Shown here: positions 3,001 to 22,229 of the stretch, in pieces
Position numbering within the stretch: position 1 is the stretch's first letter
How the letters are laid out: every line of letters starts with the position of its first letter
Translations under genes and position numbers: made by a program
Assembly (NCBI GenBank): GCA_003598015.1
Contig: QZKE01000006.1
Location: 3,188-67,187 of the forward strand
Source of the DNA: Actinomycetota bacterium
Lineage (GTDB): Bacteria > Actinomycetota > Geothermincolia > Geothermincolales > RBG-13-55-18
DNA length: 64,000 nucleotides
Direction: 5' to 3'
The notes under the pieces: generated by a model
Seen by the model: the letters and a program-made list of their open reading frames with translations, nothing else
Databases searched by the model: none
What the model was told of the DNA's origin: nothing

Positions 3001-3191
3001 CCAGAGCCCCTCCCCCATCTCTCCATGATCTTCTTTCCCAAGGGATCGTAGGAATAATTGATAAGCTGATCCGGGGAGGAGTAGGTATGGTCCCCGTCGG
3101 TAGTGTCATTGTATATGTTCTCGCGGGTCTCGGCGGCGAGTAGGCCGTCCACCTGGTATTCAAATGACTGAGTAGTTACCATCCCCACCAT
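1..3191 (-). CDS. Orphan Rhs/YD-repeat cassette 2: core 3' segment fused to a lysozyme/SLT-like tip; 3' end lies beyond window start
   Basis: Manual minus-strand translation is open from the TAG at 3273-3275 down to position 1. It is absent from the ORF track because it has no stop in the window. First ATG is at 3191. It contains YD repeats (YAYDxxGN, YTYDDLGR). Core-end motifs WMGARWYSPVHGRFLSEDP and YPYCACDPVNYSDLTGK lie at about 700-830. It is very similar at nt level, by eye, to 5665-8131. Confidence 0.7.
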   Translation of the reverse strand, partial: MVGMVTTQSFEYQVDGLLAAETRENIYNDTTDGDHTYSSPDQLINYSYDPLGKKIMERWGRGSGPYVRTWRYDANGNLLWETAGSGQAVRTTVYEYDAAGRMTKKILPAAAGESASERTYAYEYSDSERKVRETDPEGRAVTRTYDDLGREVQTEGPGDYYALREYDESGNVIEERVRQQSTPTADIFKTARYRYDNLSNRIYQIIEGEGGAAYTTTYSYDLEGNLYKIQSPLGYETWYHHDILGRLIRSELPYEGDERIGTTFRNDAAGRVVLTLEGETEGGRDAARYTYDGLSRLRRVEQWSGPWDEQARTGTGTASLTAYDMDLTGNLLETTDARLNSTSFTYDACGWPIAKQNPVGETEVYAYNAWGEMTKRTFDSPDPDRSLTFAYDGRGRLIAEGAMDEPSTQLALIEYAYDECGNLTGAQEGDSGVDMLYEPATGRLAQVTSTAGAESYQTSYQYLASGELALRQTESGATTYAYDKAGRLTGVTDPAYRNYSLTWDDDGRLSSLALPAEEGHIDYTYYEGGQTATQAAYASMDTSQLQASFTYAYNGQGKRESLDITGLSEGSGEYSYAYDSLGRLTGFDAPSTANDITYDYDEAGNLECIDKGGQESVYTYDDANRLETGPDGTTYAYDDFGNLECILDAGSNPLETYAYDPLSRLVSYEKGSTDLSLTYDPLKRLAERDDGTAAISFSYDGTSLNQTGESVGAQEVSFTLTPGGTHLSQEAAGDISYLGLDPHQDITFSLNAQGELSGSRVYDPYGGLLSSTLPCDLGYQSDYTDPSANITWMGARWYSPVHGRFLSEDPMPGEMEKPITQNHYPYCACDPVNYSDLTGKKHAAGGGGGPSSPDEEEAAKNDNPSNNPSDSGSEADNIINIILKTMYKLLAARQAAIEAGSNAHPGLAGFLGIFGLYGGGTTSGDVPDPHELGSGGPLLFTFIYGLFNRGKVEDIGLPTVAEYWDQIKDTAKHFGIDDPKILASIIAWESCNDERMSFSAWAKATLKPGSGFWGNVWNYGRRALFPWYSLLYDAAPYVVGSFKSTVGRLFGDPSVGIAQMKAG

Positions 3192-3272
3192 GGCCGCGTA
3201 ACCCGAATTGTTGACATCATCATAGGCGAAGAAATCGTATCCCCAGGCCTCCAGACCGACGGGTATGATATG
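700..3272 (-). repeat. Rhs core 3' homology block, copy C (orphan 2)
   Basis: Aligns by eye codon-for-codon with 5665-8131 and, more distantly, with 10358-12960. Indels checked are multiples of 3. Confidence 0.8.
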
Positions 3273-3517: not shown

Positions 3518-3843
3518 AGTAAGGAATAACTATAAACGATATAAGGATAACCCCCTGTTTTTCCGTTTTAAACTCTGGGGAATATTCGGGGGAATAAGCG
3601 ATGAGCGTAGCTGGAAGATAACAATTACAATGTTTACAATCTTTGGTGCCAGCATCTTTTTATTCTTCCTAGTCGTTCTAATTTTGAGTCTGTAGACAAC
3701 TTTTGTTGGACGCTAGAGTATAAAGGGTGACGTAGAATAGGGTCGAGACTAAAAGGCGGCCACGTCATGAAATAGATTGCTCTCCAAAGTGCCTACCTTG
3801 GATCATGGATAGTTGCGCTTATAATTGCGCTTATAATTACCAA

Positions 3844-4632
3844 TTATTCAAAATACAGATTCTCTATAAGATACTCCACTTCATCATCATTGACTTCGCC
3901 CAATTGATTTTGCACTGTTGCTGCATAAGGTATTCCGTCTCTAAATATCAGAAGTCGATCTTGTACAAAGACATCCTCTTCCCTCTGTATTTTGTGAGTA
4001 AAATGAATGCCACAGAATCCGCTTCTTTCGAGTTGGAAGGCCTCTATCCGTGGGGTTTCACCAACGATCGAGAATTCAGCGTACATCTCTTGCATAGCTT
4101 CCTCGATGTCTTTTCTGTTATCCATTACAAAACGCTTCATCTCCCTTAGGTTCCTTGTTTCCGGCGGTCCACCATTCTCGCCAAGCCCGTAAAAATATGC
4201 AATCTTTGAGGAGGTATGGGCTATGAATATCTGTCTATATCCACTGCTGTCAAGATAAAACGCGTCTAGTGATAAACCTGGTTCTTCCTGCTTTGCAGCC
4301 TCCGCCTCTTCGTCGAACTGCCTTCCAACCACCTGCTCATATCCGTCTGGAGTACCAATCATCTTCAATTGAGGGTGGGCTATATATCGAAAAATACCAT
4401 AGCCGACCATTACAGACGTAAATATGCACACAATGATTGCCAAGATTAGGCATATTATCTTCCAGGCGCTCCAATTTATAGAACCTCGTTTCATTGAATA
4501 TAAAACATTGTCAGGATAACAAGTTGAAGGGCACCCCTCATTTTCACTTGCATATAATTCCTCACTACATCCGATGCAAGACTCATTGGATAAGTCGTTT
4601 TCAGCCCCACAGTGAGGGCATAATATAGGCAT
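3844..4632 (-). CDS. Zinc-ribbon / single-TM protein, candidate immunity protein for orphan-1 tip
   Basis: 262-aa ORF. N-terminal CPHCG...CIGC zinc-ribbon motif. One hydrophobic helix (WKIICLILAIIVCIFTSVMVGYGIF). AGGAG 4 nt upstream of the ATG. Low GC. Sits directly 3' of the orphan-1 stop on the same strand. Confidence 0.65.
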   Translation of the reverse strand: MPILCPHCGAENDLSNESCIGCSEELYASENEGCPSTCYPDNVLYSMKRGSINWSAWKIICLILAIIVCIFTSVMVGYGIFRYIAHPQLKMIGTPDGYEQVVGRQFDEEAEAAKQEEPGLSLDAFYLDSSGYRQIFIAHTSSKIAYFYGLGENGGPPETRNLREMKRFVMDNRKDIEEAMQEMYAEFSIVGETPRIEAFQLERSGFCGIHFTHKIQREEDVFVQDRLLIFRDGIPYAATVQNQLGEVNDDEVEYLIENLYFE

Positions 4633-4792
4633 ATTCTCCTAGTCCTTCCTGCTACGTTAACATTTACTTTATTAGGCTTCGCATAACTTCATCAAACCAA
4701 TTTCGAATTCATGTTCGAGATAAAGCATTTTCCGATATTGCACATTGAATAGGTGGATGTTTCGATATGACACGATACACGAAGAATTATCC

Positions 4793-7700
4793 TCAATCCT
4801 TCTTAGGCCACCACCATATTGAACCTCCCACACCTAAGGGAAAACCTATGCTAATGCTAACTGATGGGTTAATATCCCTATCTTGCTCAAACTCAATCCC
4901 TACAGGTCCTGCCTCTATTTCTACAGTGGGTCCTGGCTCCTCTTCAGGAGTCGAATCATACTTGTATCCGGCGCCGAAGCTGAATCCATAGATTCCAAAC
5001 TTTACATCGACTCCTGAATTGGTATCGTAAGTACACTTGACACCCGGAATGCTGCCTGAAACATACCCACTAACTGGAGATATACTCAGATAACCATAGA
5101 GTTTCAAAAACAGCTTCGTTTTGTAATTACCATAACCATAACCAAAAGTATCTCTAATCATTGATTCCAATTCTAATTCGGTTAGAATTCGATTTAGTTC
5201 GGATTCATCCAATGAAGCAATCGCAAGCAAGCCTTCCATAAAATTCCTAAACGCGATATCACCTTCAGCTTTTCTTAGCTTAGCAATGGTTTTTTTCAAA
5301 CCCGCTACGGAGAGATCTTCCATTAGATCTTCCATCACCCCATAATGATGTAACAGGTTCTCAATATTCATAGCGGATTCCGCAAGTATTAGTCCTTGCC
5401 GCCAGGGATTTTTAAGACCGGCCTCTATCGCAGCTTTGCGCGTTTCAATGATCTGGTTTTTAATCCGCTGAATAATCCTCCTTCTATTCCACCTCTCTCT
5501 CTCGGCTACTCTTTCGGCCTGTATGGGATCCGCCATGGAATCCCAGTACTCGCCGGTGGATGTGCCTTCGGGAGCACTTGATACATCCCAGCTAATGGTT
5601 GGTTCGGCTGCGTCACTTTCGTTGATATTGCCTCCATTTGGATCGTAATACTTCCCCGAAAGGTCATTGAAGTTCACCGGGTCGCAGGCGCAGTAGGGGT
5701 AGGGGTTCTGGGTCATGGGCTTTTCCATCTCACCGGGCTTGGGGTCCTCGGAGAGGAAGCGGCCGTGGACCGGTGAGTACCATCTGGCCCCCATCCAGAT
5801 GAGGCTTGCTGATGGGTCGGTGTAGTCGGACTGGTAGCCCAAATCGCAGGGGTCATCTCCCGAGAGCTGGTTGCCATAAGGGTCGTAGACGCGGGAGCCC
5901 GAGAGGTTGCCGGCTGAGTCCAAGGCGAAGGTTATGTCCTGGTGGGGATCCAGCCCCAGGTAGCTTATAACCCCCGCCGCCTCCTGGGCCAGGTGCGTGC
6001 CGGAGGGGGTGAGGGTGAAGGAGACCTCCTGGGTTCCCGCCGTCTCCCCCGTCTGGGCCAGGGAGGTGCCGTCGTAGGAGAAGGAGAGGATGTCCTCGCC
6101 CTCGATCCTCTCGGCCAGCCTCTTTAAGGGGTCGTAGGTGAAGGAGAGGTCCGTCTCCCCCTTAACGTAGGTCTCGAGACGGGAGAGGGGATCGTAGGTG
6201 TAGGTCTCCAGGGGGTTGCTGCCCGCGTCCAGTATGCACTCCAGGTTGCCGAAGTCGTCGTAGGCGTAGGTGGTGCCCTCCGGTCCCGTCTGCAGGCGGT
6301 TTGCGTCGTCGTAGGTGTAGGTGGAGGCACCCTTGGCGGTGAGGTTGCCCGCCTCGTCGTAGGCGTAGGTTATGTCGTTTGCGGTGCTGGGGGCGTCGAA
6401 GCCCGTGAGCCTGCCCAGGGAGTCGTACTCATACCCGTATTCGCCGTCGCCTCCCGCGAGGCCGGCGACCTGCACGCTCTCCCGCTTGCCCGCGTCGTTG
6501 TAGGCGTAGGTGAAGGAGGCCTGGGGATCCAATTCATCCATGCTGGCGTAGGCGATCTGGGTTTCGGTCTGGCCGCCCTCGTAGTAGGTGTAGTCTATAT
6601 GGCCCTCGCCCGAGGGCAGGGCCAGGGAGGAGAGGCGGCTCTCGTCATCCCAGGTGAGGGAATAGGTCCGGTAGGCGGGATCGGTTATAGACGTGAGCCT
6701 GCCCGCCTTATCGTAGGCGTAGGTGGTGGCCCCGGCTTCCGTCTGGCGCAGCGCGAGCTCCCCCGATTGCAGGTACTGGTAGCTGGTCTGGTAGCTCTCC
6801 GTCCCGGCGGTGGAGGTTACCTCCGAGAGGCGCCCCGTGGCGGGCTCGTAGAACATATCCACGCTGCTGTCCCCCTCCTGCGCACAGGTCAGGTTGCCGC
6901 AGGCGTCGTAGGTGTAGTCGATGCGGGCGACCTCCGTCAGGGGATCCCCCTCCACGGCCCCCTCGGAGGTGAGCCGGCCGCGGCCGTCATAGCCGAAGGT
7001 CAGGGCGCGGGAGCTGCCCGAGTCCGGATAGGCCCGCGCGGTCATCTCCCCCCAGGCGTTGTAGGCGTAGACCTCCGTCTCCCCCACCGGGTTCTGCTTT
7101 GCTATGGGCCAGCCGCAGGCGTCGTAGGAGTAGGAGGTGGAATTCAGCCTTGCGTCTGTGGTCTCCAGCAGGTTGCCGGTGAGGTCTATGTCGTAGGAGG
7201 TAAGCGATGCGGTGCCGGTGCCGGTATGGGCCTGCTCGTCCCAGGGGCCGGACCACTGCTCCACCTGCCGCAGGCGGGAGAGGCCGTCGTAAGCGAGCCG
7301 GGTGGCGTCCCTGCCCTCGCCGGCTTTCCCCTCCAGGGTCAGGGTCACCCTGCCCAGAGCGTCGTTGCGGTAGGTGGTGCCTATCCTGGTCTGCCCCTCG
7401 TAGGGGAGCTCGCTGCGGATGAGGCGGCCTAGGAGGTCGTGGTGGTACCAGGTCGCGTATCCCAGGGGGCTTATGGTCAGGTAGTGGTTCCCCTCCAGGT
7501 CGTAGGAGTAGGAGGTGGTGTAGGTGGCTCCCCCCTCGCCCTCCACGATGCTGTAGATCCGGTGGGAGAGGTTGTCGTAGCGGTATCGCGCGGTCTTGAA
7601 GATGTCCGCGGCGGGGGTGGACTGCTGCCTGACCCTCTCCTCGATGACGTTGCCCGACTCGTCGTACTCACGGAGGGCATAGTAGTCCCCCGGTCCCTCG

Positions 7701-7915
7701 GTCTGCACCTCCCGGCCCAGGTCGTCGTAGGTGCGGGTGGTAACCCTGCCGCAGGGATCTGTCTCGGAGACCTTCCTCTCGGCGTCGGAGTACTCGTAGG
7801 CGTAGGTGCATTCACTGTCGGGCTCGCCCGCGGCTGCGGGGAGGATCTTCTTGGTCACCCTCCCCGCCGCGTCGTACTCGTAGGTGGTTACGCGCTGGCT
7901 CGTGCCGGAGCCCAC
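4793..7915 (-). CDS. Orphan Rhs/YD-repeat cassette 1: core 3' segment plus unrecognised C-terminal toxin tip
   Basis: 1040-aa ORF from a GTG. The same frame stays open and Rhs-homologous up to 8131 (TGA at 8132-8134). YD repeats run throughout. Core-end motifs are ARWYSPVHGRFLSEDP and YPYCACDPVNFNDLSGK. They are followed by ~290 low-GC codons (4796-5665). Confidence 0.8.
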   Translation of the reverse strand: MGSGTSQRVTTYEYDAAGRVTKKILPAAAGEPDSECTYAYEYSDAERKVSETDPCGRVTTRTYDDLGREVQTEGPGDYYALREYDESGNVIEERVRQQSTPAADIFKTARYRYDNLSHRIYSIVEGEGGATYTTSYSYDLEGNHYLTISPLGYATWYHHDLLGRLIRSELPYEGQTRIGTTYRNDALGRVTLTLEGKAGEGRDATRLAYDGLSRLRQVEQWSGPWDEQAHTGTGTASLTSYDIDLTGNLLETTDARLNSTSYSYDACGWPIAKQNPVGETEVYAYNAWGEMTARAYPDSGSSRALTFGYDGRGRLTSEGAVEGDPLTEVARIDYTYDACGNLTCAQEGDSSVDMFYEPATGRLSEVTSTAGTESYQTSYQYLQSGELALRQTEAGATTYAYDKAGRLTSITDPAYRTYSLTWDDESRLSSLALPSGEGHIDYTYYEGGQTETQIAYASMDELDPQASFTYAYNDAGKRESVQVAGLAGGDGEYGYEYDSLGRLTGFDAPSTANDITYAYDEAGNLTAKGASTYTYDDANRLQTGPEGTTYAYDDFGNLECILDAGSNPLETYTYDPLSRLETYVKGETDLSFTYDPLKRLAERIEGEDILSFSYDGTSLAQTGETAGTQEVSFTLTPSGTHLAQEAAGVISYLGLDPHQDITFALDSAGNLSGSRVYDPYGNQLSGDDPCDLGYQSDYTDPSASLIWMGARWYSPVHGRFLSEDPKPGEMEKPMTQNPYPYCACDPVNFNDLSGKYYDPNGGNINESDAAEPTISWDVSSAPEGTSTGEYWDSMADPIQAERVAERERWNRRRIIQRIKNQIIETRKAAIEAGLKNPWRQGLILAESAMNIENLLHHYGVMEDLMEDLSVAGLKKTIAKLRKAEGDIAFRNFMEGLLAIASLDESELNRILTELELESMIRDTFGYGYGNYKTKLFLKLYGYLSISPVSGYVSGSIPGVKCTYDTNSGVDVKFGIYGFSFGAGYKYDSTPEEEPGPTVEIEAGPVGIEFEQDRDINPSVSISIGFPLGVGGSIWWWPKKD

Positions 7916-8131
7916 CTTCTCCCACAGCAGGTTGCCATTGGCGTCGTATATCCAGATCTTCTCGTGCGCGGTATCTCCCCGCGCCCAGCGCTCCAGGACC
8001 TTCTTGCCGAAGGGGTCGTAGGAGTAGGTGATGTCCTGGGCGGGGGAGCGCTCATCGGGGTTTCCGTTGCACCTGGTCTCCTCCGAGAGGAGGCCGTCGC
8101 AGGTGTAGTCGTAGGAGGCTATCTCGGTGAA
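5665..8131 (-). repeat. Rhs core 3' homology block, copy B (orphan 1)
   Basis: Starts 26 nt after the stop of the WG-repeat gene. Matches main-gene residues from about DYDYFCDGLLSWETR onward. Confidence 0.8.
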
Positions 8132-8157
8132 TCAATGGAGTATGTTTCTAGCTTCGA

Positions 8158-9258
8158 TTACTGATTACTGCTGATCTTAGTACTTATAGCCGCATAGCCT
8201 TCAGAGAAAGGATTTGCAAAGCAATCTACTTCTATCATAATATCTCCAGATTTATCAATGAATCCCAACCTGTTGTCAACATGGGTCTCAGCCCGGCTAT
8301 CATGGAAACCTAAAGCGACATCAAATCGAGGTTCGATAACCAGTTCCCCGTCTTTGTTGATATAACCGTACTTGCCGTTAAGTAAGACTGGAGCCAAGCC
8401 TTCTTGAAATGAGGACGCACTCTCATATTGGGGCTCTATCACTTCAATCCCATCCTTATTGATATAGCCCCACATATCGTTGATCTTGATCGCGGCCAGC
8501 CCATCTTGAAAATCGTAGGCGAAATCAAAGCGAGGTTCAATTACAACAACCCCTGCATTATCGATAAACCCATAGTTGCCGTTTATCAATATACATTTTA
8601 ATCCCTCACTGAAACCCGTACTTAACTGACCCTCAAGCAGTTCTACAGTCGCTTCTGGTTGCAAGTCGAATACTATTTCACCAAGCCCATTGATCACGCT
8701 ATATCTATCATCCATCCACACAAATGCCAGACCCTCTGAAAAATCGAATGCCCATTTATAAATAGGTTCTATCACCATTCTTCCAGATACATCTATATAG
8801 CCACGCTTTTCAGCGATACTCACACAGGCGAGCCCATCATGGAAAGATCTTGCATAGTCGAATTGCGGAGAAATGATCATATCGCCTGATCCGTCTATGT
8901 ATCCCCATTTATCATCGACTTTAACGGCAGCCAGCCCCTCATGAAAATCCCCGGCTTCCCTATATTTGGGCTCTATAATCATATTTCCATTTTTGTTTAT
9001 AAATCCCCATAGACCACCAAAATCGACCCTCGCATACCCTTCATGGAAATTTGCTGCTTGTTTAAATTGAGGCTCGATTACAATCACGCCGTTTACGTCC
9101 ATGTACCCCCAAACTTCATTGTTGTTAACCATTTTCTGCTCTCTGCCTTCATCCGGTATATCGCTGCCACAAGACGACGATAATAGTGCAAACAACATCG
9201 TTGCCGTTGCTGTCAAAATAATGTAATACCTACTGTATCTTCCTCTCATGAAAATCAC
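8158..9258 (-). CDS. WG-repeat (KWG-type beta-repeat) secreted/lipoprotein, candidate immunity protein for the Tlde1-like tip
   Basis: 366 aa. N-terminal hydrophobic signal ending LLSSSCGS. About nine repeats of WGYIDxxGxxVIEPxFxxAxxFxEGLAxV. Low GC. Lies 82 nt downstream of the main rhs stop on the same strand. Confidence 0.85.
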   Translation of the reverse strand: MIFMRGRYSRYYIILTATATMLFALLSSSCGSDIPDEGREQKMVNNNEVWGYMDVNGVIVIEPQFKQAANFHEGYARVDFGGLWGFINKNGNMIIEPKYREAGDFHEGLAAVKVDDKWGYIDGSGDMIISPQFDYARSFHDGLACVSIAEKRGYIDVSGRMVIEPIYKWAFDFSEGLAFVWMDDRYSVINGLGEIVFDLQPEATVELLEGQLSTGFSEGLKCILINGNYGFIDNAGVVVIEPRFDFAYDFQDGLAAIKINDMWGYINKDGIEVIEPQYESASSFQEGLAPVLLNGKYGYINKDGELVIEPRFDVALGFHDSRAETHVDNRLGFIDKSGDIMIEVDCFANPFSEGYAAISTKISSNQ

Positions 9259-9340: not shown

Positions 9341-12300
9341 TCACCAGGAATCACCAGGATGGCCCGGATTAGTATAACCGACACCTATATCTACGAATAG
9401 GTATGTGTTCGACCAATTATCTGGATTTTGATCATAGCCAAGCCCTAGCAAATCACTAAAGGCATCGATAGATCTATCGAGCTTGTTTCCTAACACCCCT
9501 ATACACCCAGAGGTGCCTGCAGCTCCAGCATCCTCATGTATTAGAAACACCCCTTCCTGTATGAAATTGTCGTTTATATCTCTACTACGTGATGTTTGAT
9601 TATATAGCCATTCCATGGTGGAGCCTTTCATACCTACATTGCCGGCAGGTCTCAGTCTTATTACCCAATCCCCAAAACCTGGAAGCCAAGATTCTGTTTC
9701 TGGATTCTGTCTCCTGGTTAGCCTCCATGCACCCCTTGGAATAGGTCCAATGTCCTCTTGGGTCATCTGACCACCTGGCTGACCCGAATAAGCATCAACA
9801 TGGAACAGGCGTACCTTTCTGCCTCCCCCAAGATACATATACAAGTCAAGATACTTACCATCAAACGTCATTTCGGTATGGCCCGGGCAGAAATAATGTT
9901 TTACATCTCTCCAGAATCTCGTTTTCTGGTCAATGGTCATATTGTTAAGAACATTTATATCTGTTCTCATTAGAAACTCATCAAAATTATCAGACTCTAT
10001 TGCCGCAACTACGACTGCACCTAGACTACCCTCTAACTCAACGTCACGGTCATTCTGAATATCTTCTATTATATCTCTCAAGTATTCCTCCGCTGGATCC
10101 GGCGGGTCTTCTCCGCTTGTATGTTTATCCTGCACCAGTCCATACTCCTTGGCTTTATTCACGACCTCTTCTGCCATGCAAAGCAACCGGTAGGCCTGAT
10201 AGAGATGTTGCAGCGTCTTCTCCAGGTGATCTCTCGTATTCATCAAGTACGAAGGAGGCTCCATGCCGGCGCGGATGTAGAGGTGTATTGCATCTTGTAT
10301 CTGTATCAAAGCCCCGGTGACAGCCTGAATCTGCTGCGCAAGATCCTCCTTTGGCCCCATCCCCGTGGGGTCGAAGGCGTTTATAGGGTCGTCCTTGCAG
10401 TAGAGGTAGGGGTGCAGGGAGAGGGGGTCGCCTGTCTCGCCCTTTAAGGGGTCGACCGAGATGAACCGGGTGAGCTCGGGTGAGTACCAGCGTGCGCCCA
10501 TCCACACCAGGCCGGAGAGGGGGTCCTCGTAGTCCTCCTGGTAGCCCAGGGATGAATCGACGCTCCCCGCCACGGTATTCCCGTACGGATCACATATCCT
10601 CCCTCCCGTGAGGCTCCCCTGGCCCGAGAGGGTGAAGGAGACGTCGGTGTGGGGGGAGAGGCCCAGGTAGGACAGGGTCCCCTGTTTGTCCTGGGCCAGG
10701 TGCGTGCCCCCGGGGTCCAGGGCGTAGGTGGCGAGGGCGCCCCCTGCCGCGTTCGTCTCTTGGATCTGGGAGAGCGAGGCGCCGTCGTAGCGGAAAGCCC
10801 GCTCCGTCTCTCCGCCCACCTTCCTCTCCGAAAGGCGTCCCAGGGCGTCGTAGGAGAGGGTTACCAGGGGGGCCTGCGCGCTCTCCTTATAGGAGACCAG
10901 CTTCCCGAAGCCGTCCCAGGTGAAGGTCTCCGTGCCCTTCTGTACGAGGTTGCCCACCTCGTCGTAGGTGTAGGCGCCCTCGGGGCCGGTGGTTATCTGG
11001 CCCGCGTCGTTGTAGGAGTAGGTCTTGGTCTGCCCTCCGGTGGTCTGCTGCTCCAGATTGCCGCAGAGGTCGTAGTCGTAGGTTATGTCGTTTGCGGTGC
11101 TGGGGGCGTCGAAGCCCGTGAGCCTGCCCATGCCGTCGTAGGCGTAGGAGTAGGCGCCGGAGAGGGCGGTCTGGGAGGGCACGTTCACGGTCATGCCCGT
11201 CCGCCTGCCCCGGTCGTCGTAGCTGTAGTCGTAGGAGGCCTGCAGGGTGTTGGATGAGTCGTAGGCGGTCTGGGTCTCCGTGAGGCCCTCGGCGTAGTAG
11301 GTGTAGTCTATATGTCCCCCCGAGGCTGGGAGGGAGGCCCGCTCCAGCAGGGAGTCGGGGCTCCACTCGAAGGTGAGGGTGCCCCCGCAGACGGAGTCGG
11401 AGGAGGCGGTGAGCCGGCCGGAGATGTCGTAGGAGTAGTTGGAGGAGGCTTGGGTCTGGCCGCCTGAAGTCAGGATGCGGGAGCGCAGCTCCCCGGAGTC
11501 GTAGTAGCCGTAGGTGGTGGAGTAATCCCCCGCCGCTCCCTCCGCGTCGCAGGAGACGGAGGAGAGGCGGGAGGCGCCATCGTATGAAAGGGAGATGGTG
11601 CGGCCTGCGTCCACCCCGTTCGCCCTATCGTATACCGCCCCGGTGAGGTTTCCGGCATGATCGTAGGCGTAGTTGATGACATCGACCTCCGAGGTCCCGT
11701 CCAGCGCCCTCTCGGCTGTGAGCTGGCCGCGGCCGTCGTAGTCGTAGTCGATGGTGCGGTCGGGTTCGGGCTCGGTATAGGTGTGGGTATCCGCCTCCCC
11801 GTATGCGGTGTAGGTGAAGGACTCGGCCTGGCCCAGGGGGTCGGTCTTGCTGGTGGCCCGGCCGCAGGCGTCGTAGGTGTAGGAAGTGGTCTTCTCCCGG
11901 GCATCCGTCTGGGAGAGGAGGCTGCCCGTAAGGTCCACGTCGTAGGAGGTTGTGGCCCCCTCGCCCCCCGCGGGCACCGTATACGGCCCTGGGCCCGCCC
12001 CCGTCCAGGCATCCGTCCACTGCTCCACCCGCCGCAGGCGGGAGAGGCCGTCGTAGGTGTAGCGGGTGCCGTCCGGGTCCGCGTCCCCCTCGAAGGTATG
12101 CGTCTTCCTCCCCAGGGCATCGTAGGTAAAGGAGGTGACCACGCTCGCGCCCCCGGAGTGGGGCAGGACCTGACGCCGCAGGAGGGAGAGGCTGTCGTAG
12201 GCGTAGGTGGTGGTGTTGCCCCCCGGGGTGGTGGTGCTGGTGAGGTTCCCCCCATGGTCGTAGGCGAAGGCGGTGGAGAGGAGCAGCTGCTGCCCCCCGT

Positions 12301-15300
12301 CCTCCGAGAGCACCCGCTTCTCTACGAGCCTGCCCAGGTCGTCGAAGCGCTGGAAGGCCTGGCGGAAGGTGTCCGCTCCGACGCCCGCCTCCTGGCGGGA
12401 GGACTCCCGGATGACGTTGCCGCCGGCGTCGTAGGCGCGCAGCACCAGGGACTCTCCTGGAATCTCGGCCATCTCAACCCGTCCCAGGTCGTCCAGGGTG
12501 CTTATAACGGTCCGGCCCTCCGGGTCGGTCGCGGTCACCTTGCGCTCGGGGTCGGAATATACGAAGGATATGGTGCGCTCGCCTGTGGTCTCGCCGCCCG
12601 CGTCGGGCAGGATCTTGGCCAGCGGGCGATTGGCGCCGTCGTAGGTGTAGGCGGTGCTGCGCAAGGCCGTGCCGTTCCCGGAGGCCTCGGCCACCAGGTT
12701 GCCCGAGCCGTCATAGGCATGCAGCTGGACGTAGCTCTGCCCGCTCCCCAGGTCCCAGCTCTCCCGGGTCTTCTTCCCCGCGGGGTCGTAGGAGTAGGTG
12801 ATCTGCTGGGAGGGGGAGGTGCCCCCGGGGTTGGTATTGTTCCTGGTCTCCCAGGAGAGGAGGCCGTCGCAGAAGTAGTCGTAGTCAGAGACCAGGGTGG
12901 TGCCGCCTATGCTCCCGTAGGTCCCCAGGGAGAAACCGCCCGAGGCTTCCCCCACCGCCGCCCATACGTGCTCAACCTTTCCGAGGCCGTTGTAGTCGTA
13001 GGTGCGGTGGGAGTAGACCGCGTCTTCGGTGCCCTCTCCGTCGCAGATCGTCTCGGTGGTCACGTTGCCCAACATGTCGTAGCCGCGGTGCGCGACCACA
13101 CAGGTGGGAGCTTCATCCGGATACGAGCATATCGCCGCCTCCTGCACCGTCTTGCCCTGAGCGTTGTAGGCAAAGGAGATTGTGGCCGCGGGTGATGCCG
13201 GTCCCGTCCTGGTCTCCGTGAGCCTGTTGCCCGCGGGATCGTATTCATAAGTGGTGGTGATATCGCCCATGCTCTCCCCGGTGGTGCTCGCCTGGGCGAG
13301 CACGCGGCTCGCGGCGTCGTAGGTGTAGTTCACCTGCGCCTCGCGCCAGGTGAGGGCGTTCAGGTTGGATAGGGAGGGGTCGGGCACGGGCCGCGTGGTC
13401 CTCTCGCAGATCACGTTGCCCCGCGTGTCGTAGCTCTTCACGGTGCGGTAGTACATCTCCCCGTAGAGGGCCGAGGTGAAGCGGCGCTCCTCGTAGGCGG
13501 GCCGGCCCGCCGCGTCGTAGCCGTATGTGACGCATCCCGTGGAGTTCGGGTCCACCCTCTTCTTCACCTGGCCGTCGGCGAAATACTCGTAGGAGGTCAC
13601 GCGGTCCTCCCCGTCCACCTGCCGGACCAGGCGCCCGGCGTCGTCGTAGAAGTATCGCGTTTCCCTGCCCGCGTAGTCGCTCTCGGAGAGCAGAAAGCCA
13701 TTGGTGTCGTATTCCTTTGTCGCGCTGGTGTAGAGGGGATATTGAACCCAGCCGCCCGCGGGCGGGTTTGAAGTGTCGCCGGACGTATATACCGTTCTGG
13801 TCCATTCGCGGTCGTCCTTGTAGTACGTGTAGCCGGTCATCAGCCAGACGGCCTGCGGGTCAGAAGATGTATCCCCCCTGCTCCTTATGGTATATGCCAG
13901 GTTGCCGTTCTTGTCGTAGCGGGTGATCTCGGTGGGATTGAGGGTAGCCCCTCCCACGTTGATGGTGTAGCTGGTGTTCTTCTTCGTAACCCCCCGGAAA
14001 CCGTCCGCGACGTCGTCGTCGTACGTATACTCGTATTTGACAAGGCCCGGCCCGAAGGGCATAGAGGCCCCCAGCTCCTCGCTCTCAATCCTCCCATCCC
14101 CGGTATAGTCGTAGAAGTTAATGCACACCTGCGCCCCGTCTCCACTGGGTTGCGCCGGGTTCTCGTTCCAGTCCGAGAAGAGGTCCTCGCGGGTCAGGTC
14201 GCCATAGGCATCGTATATGTATTGCATGGTTGGTTCCTGCCCGTCCTCTTCGGGCCCCGGCTCTCCGTTCACCCTGGGCATGACCTTCAGCGTGGGCAGG
14301 CCCGGATTATTAACGGGCTCCGACGTGTCGTAGAAGTATAGGGTTTCGCTGAGGTCGAAATCTTTCACTTTCACAAGGTTGTTGTTACCGTCGTAGTCAT
14401 AGTACTTTGTATTCCCTGCCCCGTCAGTCTCGGAGGTGAGGCGGTCGCGCTCGTCATAGGTGAACTCCCTCACTCCCCCGTCGGGGCTGATGATGCGCTT
14501 CACCAGTCCCTGCTCCGAGGTGAACTGGGTGATGCGGCCCGCGGGGTCCCGGACCGACTTGCCGTTGCCGTCGTCCCCGTAGGAGTAGATGGTGGACTCA
14601 CCGGCGTTGTTCACCTCCTGGATGAGGCGGTAGAGGGTGTCGTAGCGGTGGGTGGTGGTGTAGCCCCGGCAGTCGGTGACCATGGTCATATGGGAGGGGG
14701 TGGCGTAGGAGAACTGCGTGGCGTGGCCGTACGCGTCCTCCGTCTTGCTGACCATGCCCGCGTTCGCCTCCCCTTCGGCGTAATAGGAGATGGTCTTTGA
14801 GGTCTCGTGGATATCGAGATTTTCGGGTTTGGCGATGCTCTCCAGCCGGTCCTGGAGATTGTATTTGTATTCGGTGGTCGCCCCGTAGATGTCCTGCACG
14901 TGTTCCAGGTTAGCGCTGTTATATGTGTATCCCACGGATATGAGATAGGGATTCTCTTGCCCGTTAAACTGGTTGTTGTATTCGAGCTTGGTTATGTGTT
15001 CACCATCCCAGGTGATATCCAAGCATCTGAATGTCCCCTCACTACCCGGCGCGGTGATCTTGTCCAGCTTGTTGTCGTCTCCGTAATCGAGCGTCAGGAT
15101 GTTATCGCTTGCGCCGTAATCGTCGACGATACGGACCAACCGCTTCGTCTCAGCGGGATCACCATCAACGTGGTCGAACTCCCACAGGTTGCCCCCGGGG
15201 ACCTTGAGGGTGTAGGGGGTGCTGTAATCGGGGTTTCCGGGATCGCTGCCCATCCCTTCGAACCTGCCCGCAGTGAGGTCGTCGAAGACCGTCGGCGGGG

Positions 15301-18300
15301 GCTTGAAGGTATCGCCCTCCTTTGTGTATGTGTCCACCCGGCCGTCGCCGCGGTGCACCTTGAGCGCGGTCATCGCCGGCGGGCTGCCGTTATCGTACAC
15401 CTCCTCGATATACACGTTATAGCTGTAGTCCCAGCCGTTGCCCACGGCGCTCTCGGGATAGGTGCCCCCCGGCTTATAGGAGTTGTAGGTGCGCTTGAAC
15501 TCGATGTCGATGCCCCGCCCGGGCAGGCTGACGTCGGTGGCCTCCTCCGTATAGCTGCCCAGGGAGGTGTTGATGCCCTCGTAGAAGCCGCAGAAGGTGT
15601 CGAAGCCCAGGGCGTTTAGGTCGTCCACCTCGTTCTCGGGCTCGTAGCACATCGTGCCGCGGCCGACATAGTTGAAATAGACCTTGCCGCCGGCGATAAC
15701 CGCGCTGGGTACGGGGCTATCCGCCACCAATTCTCCGTCCGTATAGGGAGACTCCCAGCGCAGGGCGCCGGAGTAGGCGTCGAAGACCATGAGCTTGGTG
15801 GTTGGGTAGTCGAAGGTTCCGACGGTAGTGAAGCCCACGTAGAGAAGGCCTCCTGCAACTGCCGGAGCACCCAGATCCGGGCCCCCGTTAAGCTGATAGG
15901 TGGAGTAGTCCTTGCACCACATGGTGGAGGCGGTGGTGGCATCGAATGCCCAGAGTTTAAGGTAGGTCTGGCAGCCAACGTTGTGGTTGGATACACAGTA
16001 GAGTATGCCGTTAGCATAGGCGATGTCATCTTCGAGCGACGAATAGACGTTCTCGCTCTGATCTCCGCCATATATCAATTGTTCGTTTTGGATCTCTACT
16101 ATCCTGATGCGGGATTGACTTAATCCGTACCAATATTTCACGTAGATGATGCCGTTGTGAATGGTGGGCACGCCTCCATAGTTCCACTGGGGCCAGGTGG
16201 TATCGGGATCGAGAATTAGGTCGTCTTCTTCCGCACCGGTGTTGATGTCGACAGCGCGCAGGCGGCCGCCCTCGGTGAATACCGCCATTCCCTCTAAGAC
16301 CGCCGGCCTCGACGGCCCCCACGGCAATTCAAAGGCGCGGTTCCATCTCTGCACGCCAGGGTTCTCCAGGTCCACGCAGACGAGGTGCGTGGTGGTCGTG
16401 AGCAGGAGCCGGTCTCCGATCGCAACCGGGTTGTTCGTGAACTCCTCCCCCGCAGGGGCGTAGTCCGTCACGAAGTACGGGTCGCCCTCCAGGCTTAGAT
16501 TATCCGCATTCAGCACGTGCAGGCTGTGGTCGGTCACCACGTAGGCCTTCCCGTTCGCCACGCACATGCCCCGGATTCGGTAGTCGGCTGGATCCGTCTC
16601 TTCAAACACGGCTTTCCTATCCCCCGCCTGCTCCCCCGTGGTATATATCTTCAGTACGGTGAACTTTTCATCCCCGCTCTCCGCCACGTAGAGGAAGCCG
16701 CCGCTCACCACCGGGGTTTTGCGGTTCATTTTATTATTTGTGCTATGATCCTCCCATTCTTGCGCGAAGGGCCAGAACATCTCCCCGGGCTTGATCCCCG
16801 CATTATAGTGGGTGTTCTTGAGGTCGTAGCCCTCCATGGGCCACTCCGGCACGCCCGAATAGTAGTAGGGATATGCGCTCGAGGCTGCGGCGTTGCCGGC
16901 CTGATCGAACGCCTTGATGAGGAAATCGTAGTAGCCGAAGCCCCTGGCGGTGAGGTCTACCGTCGCCGTCACATCGTAGTCTACCCCGCTCAGCGGCTCC
17001 TCGTATACCTTCTCGAGAGGCGCCCCTCCGTCGGTTGCCCAGATCTCAACCCTCTCGAGCCCGGACGCGGGCGCGGGATCGGATAGGTGAAAACTGAACT
17101 TGATTATACCCGGCTCGCCTTCGATAGGATTCTCCAGTTCTGCCACACCGATGGTGGGGGGCGTGACCTCTAAGGTGATGGTGTCGGAGTATACGGGGGA
17201 GTACACCCCGCTTATATCGACGAACTGGCAGCGCACCTCCTTCAGGCCCTCGACGGTGGGGAAGAAGGCGGAGTCCAGGATCCAGTCGCAATGTAGCACC
17301 CCGGTGTAGGAGCCCCCGCCGGGCAGCAGCGGCTTGGCATTCTCGGGCACGTAGTCCGGGTTGGCCGGGTCGTAGTTCCAGATCTTCACGTACTCGGCGT
17401 CCTCGGCAAAGAGTTTTAAATTGGTGAAGCCGGTATTGGTGAAATCTCCCGCCACGTCCTTGCCCATTACCTCTATGCTTCCCGAGGGCGGGGCGTTGTC
17501 CACATGTATGATGCGGATGGCCGTGCGTTGATGGCCGGCCGCATCCGAGGCTTGCAGCGCCAGGACGTGCTCGCCGTCGTCCACAGTGGTAGTGTCCCAG
17601 GTGAAGATATCCTCGGGATAGGGGCCGGTGCCTTCTTCCTCGATTAGTAGGTTGAGGTTCTCTCCGTCCCAGTCGTAGAGTGAGCAGGATACGATGTTGC
17701 TATCGTAGGCCACCCCCGCTATGTGCACCTGCTCGTACACCCTCCCCTCCTCGGGAGAGTCGATACGGACGTCGGGGAAGGTGTTGTCGGGGTTTACATG
17801 CACCCTGGCTACGGAGGAGTTGCCGGCCGCATCCGAGACAGAGAGTTCCAGCCACAGCCCCGTCTCCGCCAGCTCCGCGGTGTCCAGGCTGCCGAGGTTT
17901 ACGCCCGGCGGCAGGGTGTCGGATACGATCTCCGTCCACAGGGCGTCCGGGTCCTCGGGGTCGTCCTGGGTGTACCTGAGGCGCCAGGAGGCGAAGTTGG
18001 CATCGGATGCGGTGCCCTGCACGAACAGCGTTCCGCATGCCGCCTCCTCCGGCGCGGGCGAGGTGATGGCCGCGGCAGGGGGCGTGTTGTCCACGTTCGC
18101 CTGCACCGTGGTCTCGCTCACCAGGCCGGCTTGGTCCCGTACCGCCAGCTTCAGGGTGTAGAGGCCGTCGGCCGCGGCGGTGGTGTCCCAGCTATAGAGG
18201 AGGCCGCCCGCGGCCGGGGTCGTCATCTCTGGTGAGAGGGGGATCTCAGCGGGGCCAGTCCCCTCGCCGTAGAAGAGCTGGTAGGCGGTGAAATGCTCGT

Positions 18301-21300
18301 CCGTTGCCGTCCCGGTGATCTCCGCCGTCCCCCGCAGGTGTCCCCCCTCCTGGGGGGAGGAGATCTGGGCTGTGGGGTAGGTGCGGTCCACCTCCACGGT
18401 CACCTGGCCGGTGGAGATCTTGCCATAGGCGTCCTCCACCTGCAGCCGGAGGGTGTGGGGACCCGCGCAGGTCTCCATGGCGTTCCAGGTGGCGAGCACC
18501 CCGCCCGTGACCTCCTCCGTGCCGTACAGGTCCGCCTCTTCGTAGGCGTAGGCGCGGAAGGCGAAATCTCCGCTGCCCGCCTGCCAGGAGGTGCCGTTGT
18601 AGGAGAAGGCACCGCCACCTGGGTAGATATCCGAGCCGTACTCGCCCCACCTGGCGTAGTTATCCCCGTCCGTCTGGCCGTCGGTGCGGTAGATGACCAG
18701 GGCGTAGGTCCCCGAGGGGTCCAGGTACTGGCCCCGGAACTCGAATGGGTACCAGTGCTGTCCGGGGACGGCGTCGATCTCGCTCATGGCGTAGGTGGTC
18801 TCGGATACGGCTATGGCCTCGGAGGTGGGCACGCCCCCGGAGCATGCGCAGACCTTGAGCCCGATGCGGCAATCGCTCTCACCGATCCTGGTCAGGTAGA
18901 CCTCCGCCCGGTCCAGGTAGGGGCGGTCGGGGGTGAAGGTCTGGGCCAGGTCCAGGGCGGTGGGGGAGAAGTAGAAGGCGGGGTGGGTGCTGGCCTCCTC
19001 CTGGGAGGGCCCGGGGTCGCTCGCGACCGGGGGGATGGGGTAGAAGACGGAGGGGCTCTCCCCCACCCCGTAGGAGAGGAGGTAGCGGTAGAAGTTGCCG
19101 TCCGCAGCCGTGCCCTCGATCTGCAGCTGCCCGCCCACGATGGCGCCCTGCCCCGGCCAGGAGATCTCGGCGGCCGGGTCCTGCCTCTCTATGACCACGC
19201 CCACGATGTCGGAGCTCTCGAGGCCGCCCGCGTCGGTGACGGTGAGCTTTAGGTGCGCGATGCCGTCGGGGAGGCCTGAGAGGTCCCAGGTCTCCAGGTC
19301 CCCCTCCTGCACCGGGCCCGTATGCGGGGGGCTCAAGGGGGTCCATTCGCTCTCGCCCTCCAATCTGCATGTAAGCTGCCAGGATGAGAGCAGGACGTCG
19401 TAGGCGGTGCCCGTGACCATGAGCGAGGGGGAGGTGAGCACCTCGCCCTCCTCCGGATAGGTGATCTCGGCGTCCGGATAGGTGGAGTCCCAGACCACCT
19501 CGAAGGAGTTGGATTGGCCCGCATGGCCGGATCCGTCGTCCACGCTCACCTGGCAGGAGGCCGCGGCGGCGGATATGACCGCCTCCCCCGACCAGACACC
19601 GGAGGTGAAGTCGCCGCTGGCCTGCGGGGCTACGGTGCCCGTGGTGTCGGATATGTTAACCGAGCCCGCATAAGAGACCGCGGTGTTGCCGAAGGCGTCG
19701 GTGGCGGTTATGGCCAGGGGGAAGGCCACCCCCGCCGTGCGGGGGGTGGATATCTCGGATATGGCGAAGTGGTCCACGGGTCCCGCGATCACCTCGCTCT
19801 GCACGGTGTTGGTCGCGCAGGGGCCTGTCTCGGCGCAGTCCGCCTGCGCCTGGTTGGTTATGAGCGTGCCCGCCGGGGCCTGTGCCTTTACCTGGGCGTT
19901 AAAGGAGAGCTCCTGCTGCCCCTGGGAGGGCAGGGTGCCCAGGTCCCAGGTGATCTTGTGCTCGGAGGGCTCGTATACCCCTCCCCCCGTGATGCCCGAG
20001 ATGTTCTCCAGGCTCTCGTCCAGGTAGTCCGTAACCGCGGTCTGGGTGGCCTGCCCGGCGCCTGAGTTCACCACGCCTATGGTGTAGGCCAGGGTGCCCT
20101 GGGGCTGCACCTGCGCCAGGTCCACCTCCTTGCAGGTGGTGGAGAGGTCGGGGAGCAGGGCGGCCACGTCGAAAGTGTTGGAAGCACCCGTCTTCCCGTC
20201 ATATGCGCAGGTGATGACGTCGGCGGTGTAGGGGGCGCCGATGGTCACCGCGCCCGTGAACACGCCGGAGGCGAAGCCGCCGGGCGGCACGTCGGTCTGG
20301 CCGTAGCCGTCGTATCCCCAGCCCGCGATGGTGCCGCCTGAGCGCAGGGCCAGGCAGTGGTGGTCCCCCGCGGATATGGCGGTGAAATCGTTGCCGGAAG
20401 GCACCGTCGTCTGACCATAGTTGTTGTACCCCCAGGCGGCCAGGGTGCCGCCGGTGCGCAGGGCCAGGGAATGGTAGTTGCCCGCGGAGATGGCGGCGTA
20501 ATCGTTTCCCGCGGGCGGGGTGGCCTCGCCGTGCTCGTTGTATCCCCACCCCGCGATGGAGCCGTCCGCGCGCAGGGCCAGGCAGTGGTAGGCCCCGGCG
20601 GAGATGGCCACGTAGTCGCTGCCGGAGGGCACGCTTGTCTGCCCGTTATTGTTCAGCCCCCAGGCCACCAGGGAGCCGTCGGTCTTCAAAGCCAGGGAGT
20701 GGTAGTAGCCGGCGGAGATGGCCGCGAAATCGTTTCCCGCAGGCACGTTCGTCTGGCCGTAGTAGTTCTCGCCCCAGCCGGCCAGGGAGCCGTCCGCTTT
20801 GAGCGCCAGGCCGTGGAAGCCGCCCGCGGCCACGGCGACGAAGTCCGTGCCCGCCGGAGGGGTGGCCTGGCCGTGGTTGTCGTAGCCCCAGCCGGCCAGG
20901 GAGCCGCCTGAGCGCAGTGCCAGGGAGTGATTGGCGCCGCCCGCCACGGCGACGTAGTCCGTGCCCGCGGGCACGCCGGTCTGGCCCTGGTCGTTTTTGC
21001 CCCACGCCCACAGCGACCCGCCGGAGCTCACCGCCAGGGAGTGGTGGGAGCCGGCATCCAGGGCGGCGTAGACGTTCCGGGTCTCCGTGGGGCTGATGGC
21101 CCCTGTGAGGTCCGAGAGGCCTGCCACTTCCTCGAAGTCGGAGATGGTCTCCCCCGCGGCGTCCTTGGCGTAGATGGTCACCGCGAAGGGCTGTCCCTCG
21201 GTCTGGGGAGAGGATACGGGATCGAAGGTGAAATGGTGAAGGGGATCGGGGGCGATCACCGTCGTTTGGACGGTGTTGCTCACATGGGGCCCCCCGCCGC

Positions 21301-21703: not shown

Positions 21704-21783
21704 TTCAATCCCCCCAATATGCCCGAAGCCCGCCGCGGCTCGATATCGACGTTCATTGCGACTGCGCCCTTGGATCTCTTCAA
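21700..21783 (-). CDS. Candidate 27-codon upstream ORF created by duplication of the rhs start region
   Basis: TTG AAG AGA TCC AAG GGC (MKRSKG, identical to the rhs start) preceded by the same GGGGGGATTG. The frame ends in a TGA that overlaps the rhs TTG start (TTGA). Confidence 0.3.
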   Translation of the reverse strand: MKRSKGAVAMNVDIEPRRASGILGGLN

Positions 21784-21990
21784 TGCAATCCCCCCATGTG
21801 CCCGGAGCTTACAACGCGTCTTATATCGCATACGCAAAACGTGGTGAGGTAAGAAGAAGTAGTCATGCCCGCGCGCTCATCCGTACCCCCCTTCGTCCTC
21901 GCAGCCGCCGCCGGCCCGCCGCATGCGCTCGGCCGGCGCGCTGCCGAACCTCGTTTGCTTACCGGCGGTCAATAGCCCCACTGGCGTCTA

Positions 21991-22019
21991 TTCATATAGG
22001 GGGGCAAGCGAGATGTCAA
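21991..22019 (-). promoter_or_regulatory. Candidate sigma70-like promoter upstream of rhs (TTGACA-17 nt-TATGAA)
   Basis: Minus-strand TTGACA at 22014-22019 and TATGAA at 21991-21996. About 290 nt upstream of the rhs start. Sequence match only. Confidence 0.25.
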
Positions 22020-22229
22020 GCGGTAAATGGTTTTTTTTTACAGCTTCGGTCGTACTGGTGGCCTCCGCTGGTCACCAAGTCACGTCAATCGAAGGCAGCC
22101 TGCCAAGCCGCGTACGGCTTGCATCTCGATCAGAGCATGAATCAAACCGTTACCTGTGCAGATTCAAGGCCAGCCGTGCAAAACGTGACAGCGGAGCGAG
22201 GACCACTACCCCGGAGCTCGGGCAACAAA

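Follow-up and report, generated by a model that had tools for sequence, protein, structure and literature searches.

The main rhs gene of the window, i.e., of the whole 64,000-nucleotide stretch of contig QZKE01000006.1 analyzed here, lies on the minus strand (9341..21703; open reading frame (ORF) list and Pfam search of the whole protein) and encodes an Rhs protein of 4120 amino acids whose C-terminal tip almost certainly contains, in its C-terminal half, a domain of the YkuD/Tlde1 superfamily. This tip is a divergent relative and not a plain Tlde1, since its Pfam score is below the threshold of the family and since both the second His of the catalytic motif and an otherwise invariant Arg are missing. 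Taken as a whole, the evidence makes it likely that the protein is an Rhs toxin directed against the cell wall and that the WG-repeat lipoprotein encoded by the next gene is its immunity protein. The more ambitious proposition that the module is the founding member of a branch of L,D-peptidase toxins confined to Actinomycetota, combining a remodeled acidic active site (Glu, H-E-D), a helical subdomain, Sec-Rhs delivery without an injection machine and a new class of WG lipoprotein immunity, is offered as tentative, its parts having slightly less than an even chance of all being right together.

Composition of the toxin tip and its relation to the Tlde1/YkuD superfamily

The translation of the Rhs core ends with ...DDPINAFDPTGM and is followed by a tip of 338 residues (9344..10357, minus strand, as are all the tip segments given below). 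The boundary between core and tip is marked by the motif DPLKG-x22-DPTGM (10358..10453, minus strand), in which DPTGM represents residues 3778–3782 of the Rhs protein, and coincides with a drop of the GC content from 0.647 to 0.461 and of the GC content at third codon positions (GC3) from 0.861 to 0.435. The first-pass annotation, made from the sequence alone, had described a low-GC segment of 338 codons after DPTGM, and this count is exact. The spacer and the next gene are as GC-poor as the tip. The tip is a horizontally exchanged low-GC cassette of a polymorphic Rhs toxin and the succession of a main rhs gene and orphan rhs cassettes downstream is the usual organization of such arrays. A plus-strand reading of the tip coordinates is ruled out by the abundant stop codons that interrupt it throughout; the tip is the 3′ end of the minus-strand ORF.

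Within the tip, residues 1–71 (10145..10357) form a poorly conserved helical hairpin, with helices 2–29 and 36–71 in the AlphaFold2 (AF2) model and only 24% identity to P0001, the closest relative found. Residues 88–157 (9887..10096) constitute a second helical subdomain, delimited by the same model and by its segment identity to P0001 (58.6%), while residues 158–325 (9383..9886) are the divergent Tlde1/YkuD-fold L,D-peptidase domain identified by Pfam, hhalign and Foldseek. The latter domain, 50% identical to that of P0001, corresponds to residues 3940–4107 of the 4120 residues of the Rhs protein, i.e., to its extreme C-terminus. That the first ~160 residues of the tip are helical and belong to no known family, as originally suggested, is borne out by the prediction of helical structure for ~157 residues and by the lack of any Pfam or NCBIfam match of this region. 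Among the relatives borne on Rhs proteins, the subdomain 88–157 is conserved together with the catalytic domain; canonical Tlde1 proteins do not have it.

The L,D-peptidase domain had been recognized from the decapeptide GPIPRGAWRL and from a catalytic motif some 60 residues further on. Both are present and their starts are 65 residues apart: the former (9719..9748, tip residues 204–213) is an instance of the block GP[IL]PxGx[WY], invariant in the family by column counts over 48 sequences, and the latter, GVFLIHEDAGAAGTSGCIGVLG (9488..9553, tip residues 269–290), is placed by hhalign to Tlde1a. The tip carries FLIHEDAGAAGTSGCI besides GPIPRGAWRL. The sole notable Pfam match of the tip is that of its C-terminal half with Tlde1_dom (PF10908, DUF2778; curated gathering threshold 30.1 bits), which yields 26.2 bits (E 1.1e-5), a score reduced to 24.8 bits when the entire tip is searched and to 20.1 bits with the whole Rhs protein; two of its relatives (P0003 and P0005) likewise remain below the threshold. 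The Pfam YkuD profile gives no score for the tip and weak scores for P0001 and P0003, a phmmer search of the tip against the PDB returned chance matches only (e.g., chorismate synthase, E 0.16) and a word-indexed search of the tip against 5.8 billion proteins returned no match.

The assignment is carried mainly by comparisons between profiles. A profile of the tip clade only, built without canonical members, retrieved from 5.8 billion sequences the protein P0007, which lies above both Pfam cut-offs (33.8 bits for YkuD and 30.6 bits for Tlde1_dom), and upon addition of P0007 the profile collected 391 proteins, nearly all of which are annotated as PF10908 and/or PF03734. Furthermore, hhalign of the clade profile against an alignment of 37 canonical PF10908/PF03734 proteins gave a probability of 99.1% (E 8.4e-19) over 141 columns; the canonical alignment in turn matches the crystal structure of Tlde1a (7UMA) over the entire domain with E 3.4e-7, and its hidden Markov model applied directly to the tip scores 26 bits. 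As to the fold, the single-sequence AlphaFold prediction of the tip was unusable, having a predicted local distance difference test score (pLDDT) of 46, but the AF2 model built with the family alignment reached a pLDDT of 76.6 and a predicted template modeling score (pTM) of 0.62. Foldseek of this alignment-dependent model against the PDB found the Helicobacter L,D-carboxypeptidase Csd6 (E 1.5e-5, prob 1.00) and, as second match, the Gluconobacter 1,3-L,D-transpeptidase 8qzg (E 3.8e-3, prob 0.99); no other match was below E 0.1, the next one being at E 0.18. The Tlde1/YkuD assignment of the first-pass annotation stands as regards superfamily homology, L,D-transpeptidase fold and retention of the catalytic His, Thr and Cys, and does not stand as regards the Pfam threshold, the second His and the invariant Arg. 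The explanation that the motifs are fortuitous is ruled out by the Tlde1_dom E value, by the hhalign probability and by the column counts described below.

Several points nevertheless weigh against seeing in the tip an active wall-directed member of this superfamily. The tip misses the gathering threshold of Tlde1_dom (26.2 vs 30.1 bits) and finds no match in NCBIfam; the HMMER search of the clade profile against the PDB misses Tlde1a, its best match being Pgp2 with a suggestive but not significant E of 0.23, and the direct hhalign comparison with Tlde1a spans 23 columns only (86.5%). The alignment used for the AF2 model is dominated by canonical members, so that the model represents a consistency check which depends on the homology call. 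Moreover, the tip is devoid of the second His of (S/T)HGC and of the family-invariant Arg and, because of these two replacements, its activity may differ from that of Tlde1 or be weakened. Finally, the single membrane attributed to this lineage and to its targets in the mechanism proposed below is an assumption.

The WG-repeat lipoprotein encoded downstream

The candidate immunity gene (8158..9258, minus strand) starts 82 nucleotides downstream of rhs, on the same strand, and encodes a lipoprotein-like protein of 366 amino acids that, like the tip, is specified by low-GC DNA and that contains eight WG_beta_rep repeats (Pfam PF14903, E 1.4e-88). A WG_beta_rep protein of 346–366 amino acids follows the toxin module in five out of five Rhs-type cassettes belonging to four loci, namely that of the window, L001 (which has two), L087 and L088 (also recovered as L089/L090). 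The two WG proteins of L001 (352 and 364 amino acids) are 36–42% identical to that of the window and all three display a lipobox pattern, this being, here as for the Rhs protein, a pattern match only, obtained with a regular expression modeled on the PROSITE PS51257 rule. Among the five cassettes, the WG gene is retained even after the degraded toxin fragments P0002 (chimeric) and P0004 (truncated). Different tips, on the other hand, have different neighbors: the other orphan tip of the window is followed by a zinc-ribbon/transmembrane protein, the gene after the non-Rhs relative P0005 encodes an unrelated protein of 226 amino acids, and the genes beside canonical members of the Tlde1 family encode small or ankyrin-repeat proteins, one of these loci being T6SS-like (T6SS, type VI secretion system) with ClpV-like and DUF4123 genes. 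Since the WG gene occurs in all five cassettes and other tips have other partners, the WG lipoprotein is tied to the Rhs-borne tip clade.

What could be the function of this protein? It is probably an immunity protein of a new type, a role suggested by its persistence even where the toxin has decayed to a fragment, a behavior typical of orphan immunity genes. An antidote anchored to the membrane and exposed outside the cytoplasm would also fit, because the toxin would act on the wall. Alternatively, the WG lipoprotein might have an accessory role, for example in helping the tip to bind the wall or a receptor or in acting as its chaperone, immunity being provided elsewhere or not being needed at all. 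At 346–366 amino acids it would be a large immunity protein, the literature searched documents no WG_beta_rep protein in such a role, sequence searches found no solved structure for it and PADLOC assigned it to no defense family. Against these considerations stand the position of its gene directly downstream of the tip, on the same strand and with the same low GC, its presence after all five Rhs-type cassettes including the two with degraded toxins (i.e., the pattern of an orphan immunity gene), the agreement between an extracytoplasmic lipoprotein and the expected site of action of the toxin and the different partner of the neighboring, different tip; an accessory role is accordingly regarded as unlikely, albeit the best surviving of the alternatives to the toxin–immunity pair. 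An involvement of the tip, of the WG protein or of the zinc-ribbon neighbor in anti-phage defense was discarded, none of the three being matched by PADLOC.

Active-site residues and predicted action on peptidoglycan

For the comparison of active sites the Tlde1a sequence was rebuilt from the alignment of the canonical proteins with 7UMA, and the resulting numbering reproduces the published positions C37, C66, C86, C111, H121, H129 and C131. In the hhalign alignment the tip residues H274, T282, S283, G284 and C285 correspond to H121, S128, H129, G130 and C131 of Tlde1a, respectively, the codons of the catalytic residues being located on the minus strand at 9536-9538 (His), 9512-9514 (Thr) and 9503-9505 (Cys). 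The Tlde1/L,D-transpeptidase motif is H-x(n)-(S/T)-H-G-C-h, with His, Ser/Thr and Cys being catalytic (PMC9638812), and the corresponding sequence of the tip, H274-x7-T282-S283-G284-C285-I286, contains all its elements but the second His. Column counts over the 48 sequences, 41 of which are canonical, indicate that at least 20 family-invariant positions are kept in the tip, among which are F-D-G, L170, A189, S-G, G-P-x-P-x-G, W211, W250, F271, I273, H274, G281, G284, C285, I286 and V322.

The two replacements mentioned above differ in their implications. The position of the second His, occupied by Ser in the tip, varies within the family, Ala being found in 34 of the 41 canonical members and His in P0001. 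Tlde1a H129A still has D-amino-acid exchange activity (PMC9638812). The second replacement concerns E268 (9554..9556, minus strand), which by column counts occupies the place of the invariant Arg, i.e., R115 of Tlde1a: Arg is found in 41 of 41 canonical members, Glu in the tip and in P0001 and Pro in the fragments P0002 and P0004. In Tlde1a this Arg, reported to be conserved across the Tlde1 subfamilies, makes a salt bridge with the carboxylate of the D-amino acid entering the exchange pocket (PMC9638812). Furthermore, in place of the G-G that follows the catalytic His in the family, the tip has E-D, with one residue inserted.

The mechanism that can be envisaged starts with the export of the Rhs protein by the Sec system, as suggested by its signal/lipobox pattern, and with the release of the tip from the Rhs shell, which by analogy with known Rhs proteins would be effected by the Rhs aspartyl autoprotease cutting at DPTGM. 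Judging from the aligned residues, Cys285 would act as the nucleophile attacking an L,D bond in the peptidoglycan stem peptides of neighboring cells; the likeliest activity is that of an L,D-carboxypeptidase or endopeptidase, which would remove D-Ala4 or open 3-3 cross-links so that L,D cross-linking would be starved or undone. The D-amino-acid exchange typical of Tlde1a is probably altered or lost, because the Arg of the exchange pocket is a Glu and the cleft is more acidic, and hydrolysis or the use of a different acceptor is therefore to be expected; this is the least secure step of the mechanism, and the specific reaction assigned to the tip has about an even chance of being the correct one. 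The predicted target being extracytoplasmic and the wall exposed, no membrane would have to be crossed, and the producer is predicted to be shielded by the membrane-anchored WG lipoprotein binding the toxin outside the membrane. Many Actinomycetota, e.g., mycobacteria, depend heavily on 3-3 cross-links, and because of this reliance an enzyme removing the tetrapeptide donors would strike at a sensitive point.

The same fold and triad might, however, serve another reaction, such as a transpeptidation coupling something to peptidoglycan (and thereby anchoring the Rhs protein or the tip to the wall of the producer or of the target) or an amidase-like cleavage of protein–peptidoglycan links. E. coli L,D-transpeptidases, for instance, attach Lpp to the wall, and the YkuD fold as such is used for cross-linking, Lpp attachment, carboxypeptidase activity and formation of 1,3 cross-links, as in the Foldseek match 8qzg; in addition, the Glu in place of the acceptor/exchange-pocket Arg and the acidic E-D following the His suggest that the acceptor or substrate is not that of Tlde1a. 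Yet the cassette has the features of a toxin, i.e., a low-GC swappable tip, arrays of orphans and a dedicated, co-inherited partner kept even beside truncated fragments, and anchoring would require neither an immunity-like partner nor polymorphism; a reaction of this kind is given a rather small probability, a little below that of an accessory role of the WG protein. Least probable of all is that the domain is a decayed, non-catalytic relic, the tip then being inert or acting by way of its helical N-terminal half: E268 in place of an Arg found in every canonical member, S283 in place of H129 and the conservation of subdomain 88–157 at least as well as the catalytic domain could be so explained, but relatives of 28–50% identity have retained His, Thr, Gly, Cys and ~20 further invariant positions, a sign that the active site is under purifying selection, position H129 is dispensable, being Ala in most canonical members and its replacement in Tlde1a being compatible with exchange, and the full-length ORF is intact.

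Relatives, known systems and genomic setting

A phmmer search of the tip against 1.84 billion representative proteins identified five real relatives, P0001–P0005. P0001 is an Rhs fragment that matches the tip over its entire length (47% identity) and has the canonical THGCI motif; P0003, another Rhs fragment with 30% identity to the tip, is encoded with P0001 on a single contig (L001) of the Actinomycetota metagenome-assembled genome (MAG) MAG84_tar_biofilm; P0005 is a non-Rhs protein of 453 amino acids, and P0002 and P0004 are fragments. The three genomes that bear a name, namely the nearest relative of that of the window and two carriers of relatives of the tip, are all Actinomycetota MAGs. 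Searches for related loci found no relative with the tip alone in the genome collection, none with the alignment of tip and P0001 in the metagenome collection and, with the same alignment in the genome collection, the already-known contig of P0001 only. The tip clade is very rare and appears new.

Some details of the relatives deserve mention. P0002 (L087, 1248-1802) is a chimeric protein of 184 amino acids in which ~95 unrelated N-terminal residues precede a piece comprising only the ~80 C-terminal residues of the Tlde1-like domain, from just before the catalytic His onward; a WG-repeat gene still follows, and P0002 looks like what recombination has left of a displaced tip. P0004 (L088, 2978-3502; also in L089 and L090), from the Actinomycetota MAG Ch49, is a truncated copy of the toxin module that does not reach the catalytic Cys; an Rhs fragment precedes it, and after it come an intact WG-repeat gene and, next, a nucleotidyltransferase/HEPN pair. 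P0005 (L002, 188-1549) is located two genes upstream of an RCC1-repeat protein (3542-4720), seven RCC1 repeats being present also in the Rhs protein of the window.

Among the systems already described, the closest is the Tox-LD-peptidase class of Zhang et al. 2012 (PMC3482391), defined by an LD-peptidase fold with conserved H, S and C and reported from Actinobacteria, Bacteroidetes, proteobacteria, Chloroflexi and Firmicutes in association with RHS repeats, with export through the type II secretion system (signal peptide), T6SS or TcdB/TcaC and with the immunity proteins Imm16 and Imm57. According to the same paper, RHS architecture and linked immunity genes set these toxins apart from the enzymes of wall maintenance, and its survey of immunity proteins contains a single lipoprotein family (Imm65) and no beta-propeller proteins (PMC3482391). 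The tip fits this class of Rhs toxins, cataloged as early as 2012: by comparison with the published description it shares with it the C-terminal L,D-peptidase fold, the H, S/T and C residues, the RHS repeats, a putative signal peptide, the occurrence in Actinobacteria, a candidate immunity gene downstream and the predicted attack on the stem-peptide links of peptidoglycan. The claim of the first-pass annotation that an Rhs protein exported by Sec would be a new context for this domain is refuted by that paper, which lists RHS repeats, signal-peptide export and Actinobacteria together. What sets the tip clade apart from the description is the additional conserved helical subdomain, the absence of the invariant Arg and the partner, a WG_beta_rep lipoprotein (known here by its Pfam repeat match) instead of Imm16 or Imm57; neither the clade, nor the changes of its active site, nor the WG partner are covered by the paper. 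In the literature searched, Tox-LD-peptidase toxins are mentioned only by Zhang et al. 2012 and none was found to have been studied experimentally.

With Tlde1, represented by Tlde1a of Salmonella Typhimurium (7UMA), the tip shares the superfamily, the order of the blocks FDG...SG...GPxPxG...W...FxIH...(S/T)xGC, the aligned catalytic His, Ser/Thr and Cys and the predicted action on peptidoglycan outside the cytoplasmic membrane. Tlde1 is, however, a small stand-alone cargo of the T6SS in Gram-negative bacteria, where the small periplasmic protein Tldi1 provides immunity, whereas the tip is fused to Rhs in an Actinomycetota and its 366-residue WG_beta_rep partner is clearly another kind of protein than Tldi1. 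Compared with Tlde1a, the tip has Ser for H129, Glu for R115 and one additional residue behind its catalytic His (HED vs HGG), and misses, as far as the alignment shows, the disulfide cysteines and the capping insert. Its sub-threshold Pfam score, the replacement of the invariant Arg and the lack of signs of T6SS delivery place the tip outside Tlde1 in the strict sense, and the possibility that it is a T6SS effector is ruled out by the gene context, by the lack of PAAR and VgrG and by the Actinomycetota host. The housekeeping YkuD enzymes (LdtMt2, YcbB, Csd6 and Pgp2) have the same beta-sandwich catalytic fold but are chromosomal wall-maintenance enzymes endowed with their own signal peptides and peptidoglycan-binding domains and do not reside in low-GC Rhs cassettes with a partner gene.

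The overall plan of the protein resembles that of the Sec-exported Rhs/WapA toxins of Gram-positive bacteria, which are likewise large exported YD/RHS proteins having a polymorphic C-terminal toxin, immunity encoded downstream and no injection machine. To our knowledge, the characterized WapA tips are nucleases acting in the cytoplasm, whereas the predicted target of the tip of the window is the cell wall. In general, the Rhs toxins studied so far bear mostly nucleases or ADP-ribosyltransferases, which need access to the cytoplasm, and also in a 2026 survey of Salmonella the Rhs repeats are usually fused to effectors acting in the cytoplasm (PMC12994826).

Three features of the locus thus appear new, namely the rare clade of the tip, the Glu in the place of the exchange-pocket Arg and the WG lipoprotein partner. 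If the more ambitious proposition made at the outset is correct, this would be the first function assigned to WG_beta_rep (PF14903), for which no reported function was found in the literature searched, and the first cell-wall-targeting Rhs toxin–immunity pair in a phylum of Gram-positive type. Is it enough for an exported Rhs protein, in order to kill, to set free a wall-modifying enzyme where peptidoglycan is exposed? How does the change from Arg to Glu affect the dual carboxypeptidase/exchange chemistry of the Tlde1a type? Can WG beta-repeat lipoproteins, which constitute a widespread family, serve as immunity proteins? With an intact full-length toxin, a candidate antidote and related loci available for comparison, the locus represents a clean test case for these questions; a known category would be extended, the general understanding of polymorphic toxin systems being left unchanged.

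As to the carrier, Pfam search of the whole Rhs protein revealed two DUF11 domains, seven RCC1 repeats, Ig-like domains, DUF6531 and RHS repeats (RHS_repeat, E 1.4e-55), and none of the PAAR, VgrG, LXG or WXG domains. The N-terminus fits a Sec/lipoprotein signal pattern, the regular expression delimiting a putative signal peptide of residues 1–28 (21620..21703, minus strand, TTG start) with the lipobox-like end ...LLTLFAAG/C. The N-terminal half (residues ~40-2040 of the protein encoded by 9344..21703, minus strand) is unusually elaborate for an Rhs toxin, comprising the two DUF11, the RCC1 beta-propeller and several Ig-like domains, after which a long stretch without any Pfam family precedes DUF6531. 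The flanking genes are housekeeping ones (guaA, guaB3, groEL, tsaD, glmS and glmM) and no genes of the T6SS or of the type VII secretion system are found among the neighbors of rhs in the window. The host is an uncultured lineage of Actinomycetota, since the GroEL of the window shares 96% identity with that of the Actinomycetota MAG Zod_Metabat.1188 and no more than 75% with any other.

Downstream of the WG gene, the orphan rhs fragment (4793..7915, minus strand, 1040 amino acids) has a low-GC tip of its own (4796-5560) with a Gly- and Trp-rich end and no family match in Pfam or NCBIfam; it is followed by a low-GC gene (3844..4632, minus strand) for a protein of 262 amino acids that has a zinc ribbon at its N-terminus and a single transmembrane helix and that probably confers immunity to this orphan tip. 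A third rhs module (3..3272, minus strand), an open frame of 1090 amino acids running off the start of the window, consists of an Rhs core and of a low-GC tip following "...DLTGK". This tip, which is incomplete at the window edge and has no Pfam match, contains "IAWESCNDE ... VGIAQMK", by eye similar to the motif of lytic transglycosylases (SLT), and may be a second wall-targeting tip. Finally, the plus-strand ORFs 963..2651, 6599..7432, 7439..8164 and 21615..23276 overlap minus-strand genes in high-GC DNA and, lying opposite the genes of Rhs cores (the last one opposite the 5′ end of rhs and guaA), look like antisense artifacts.

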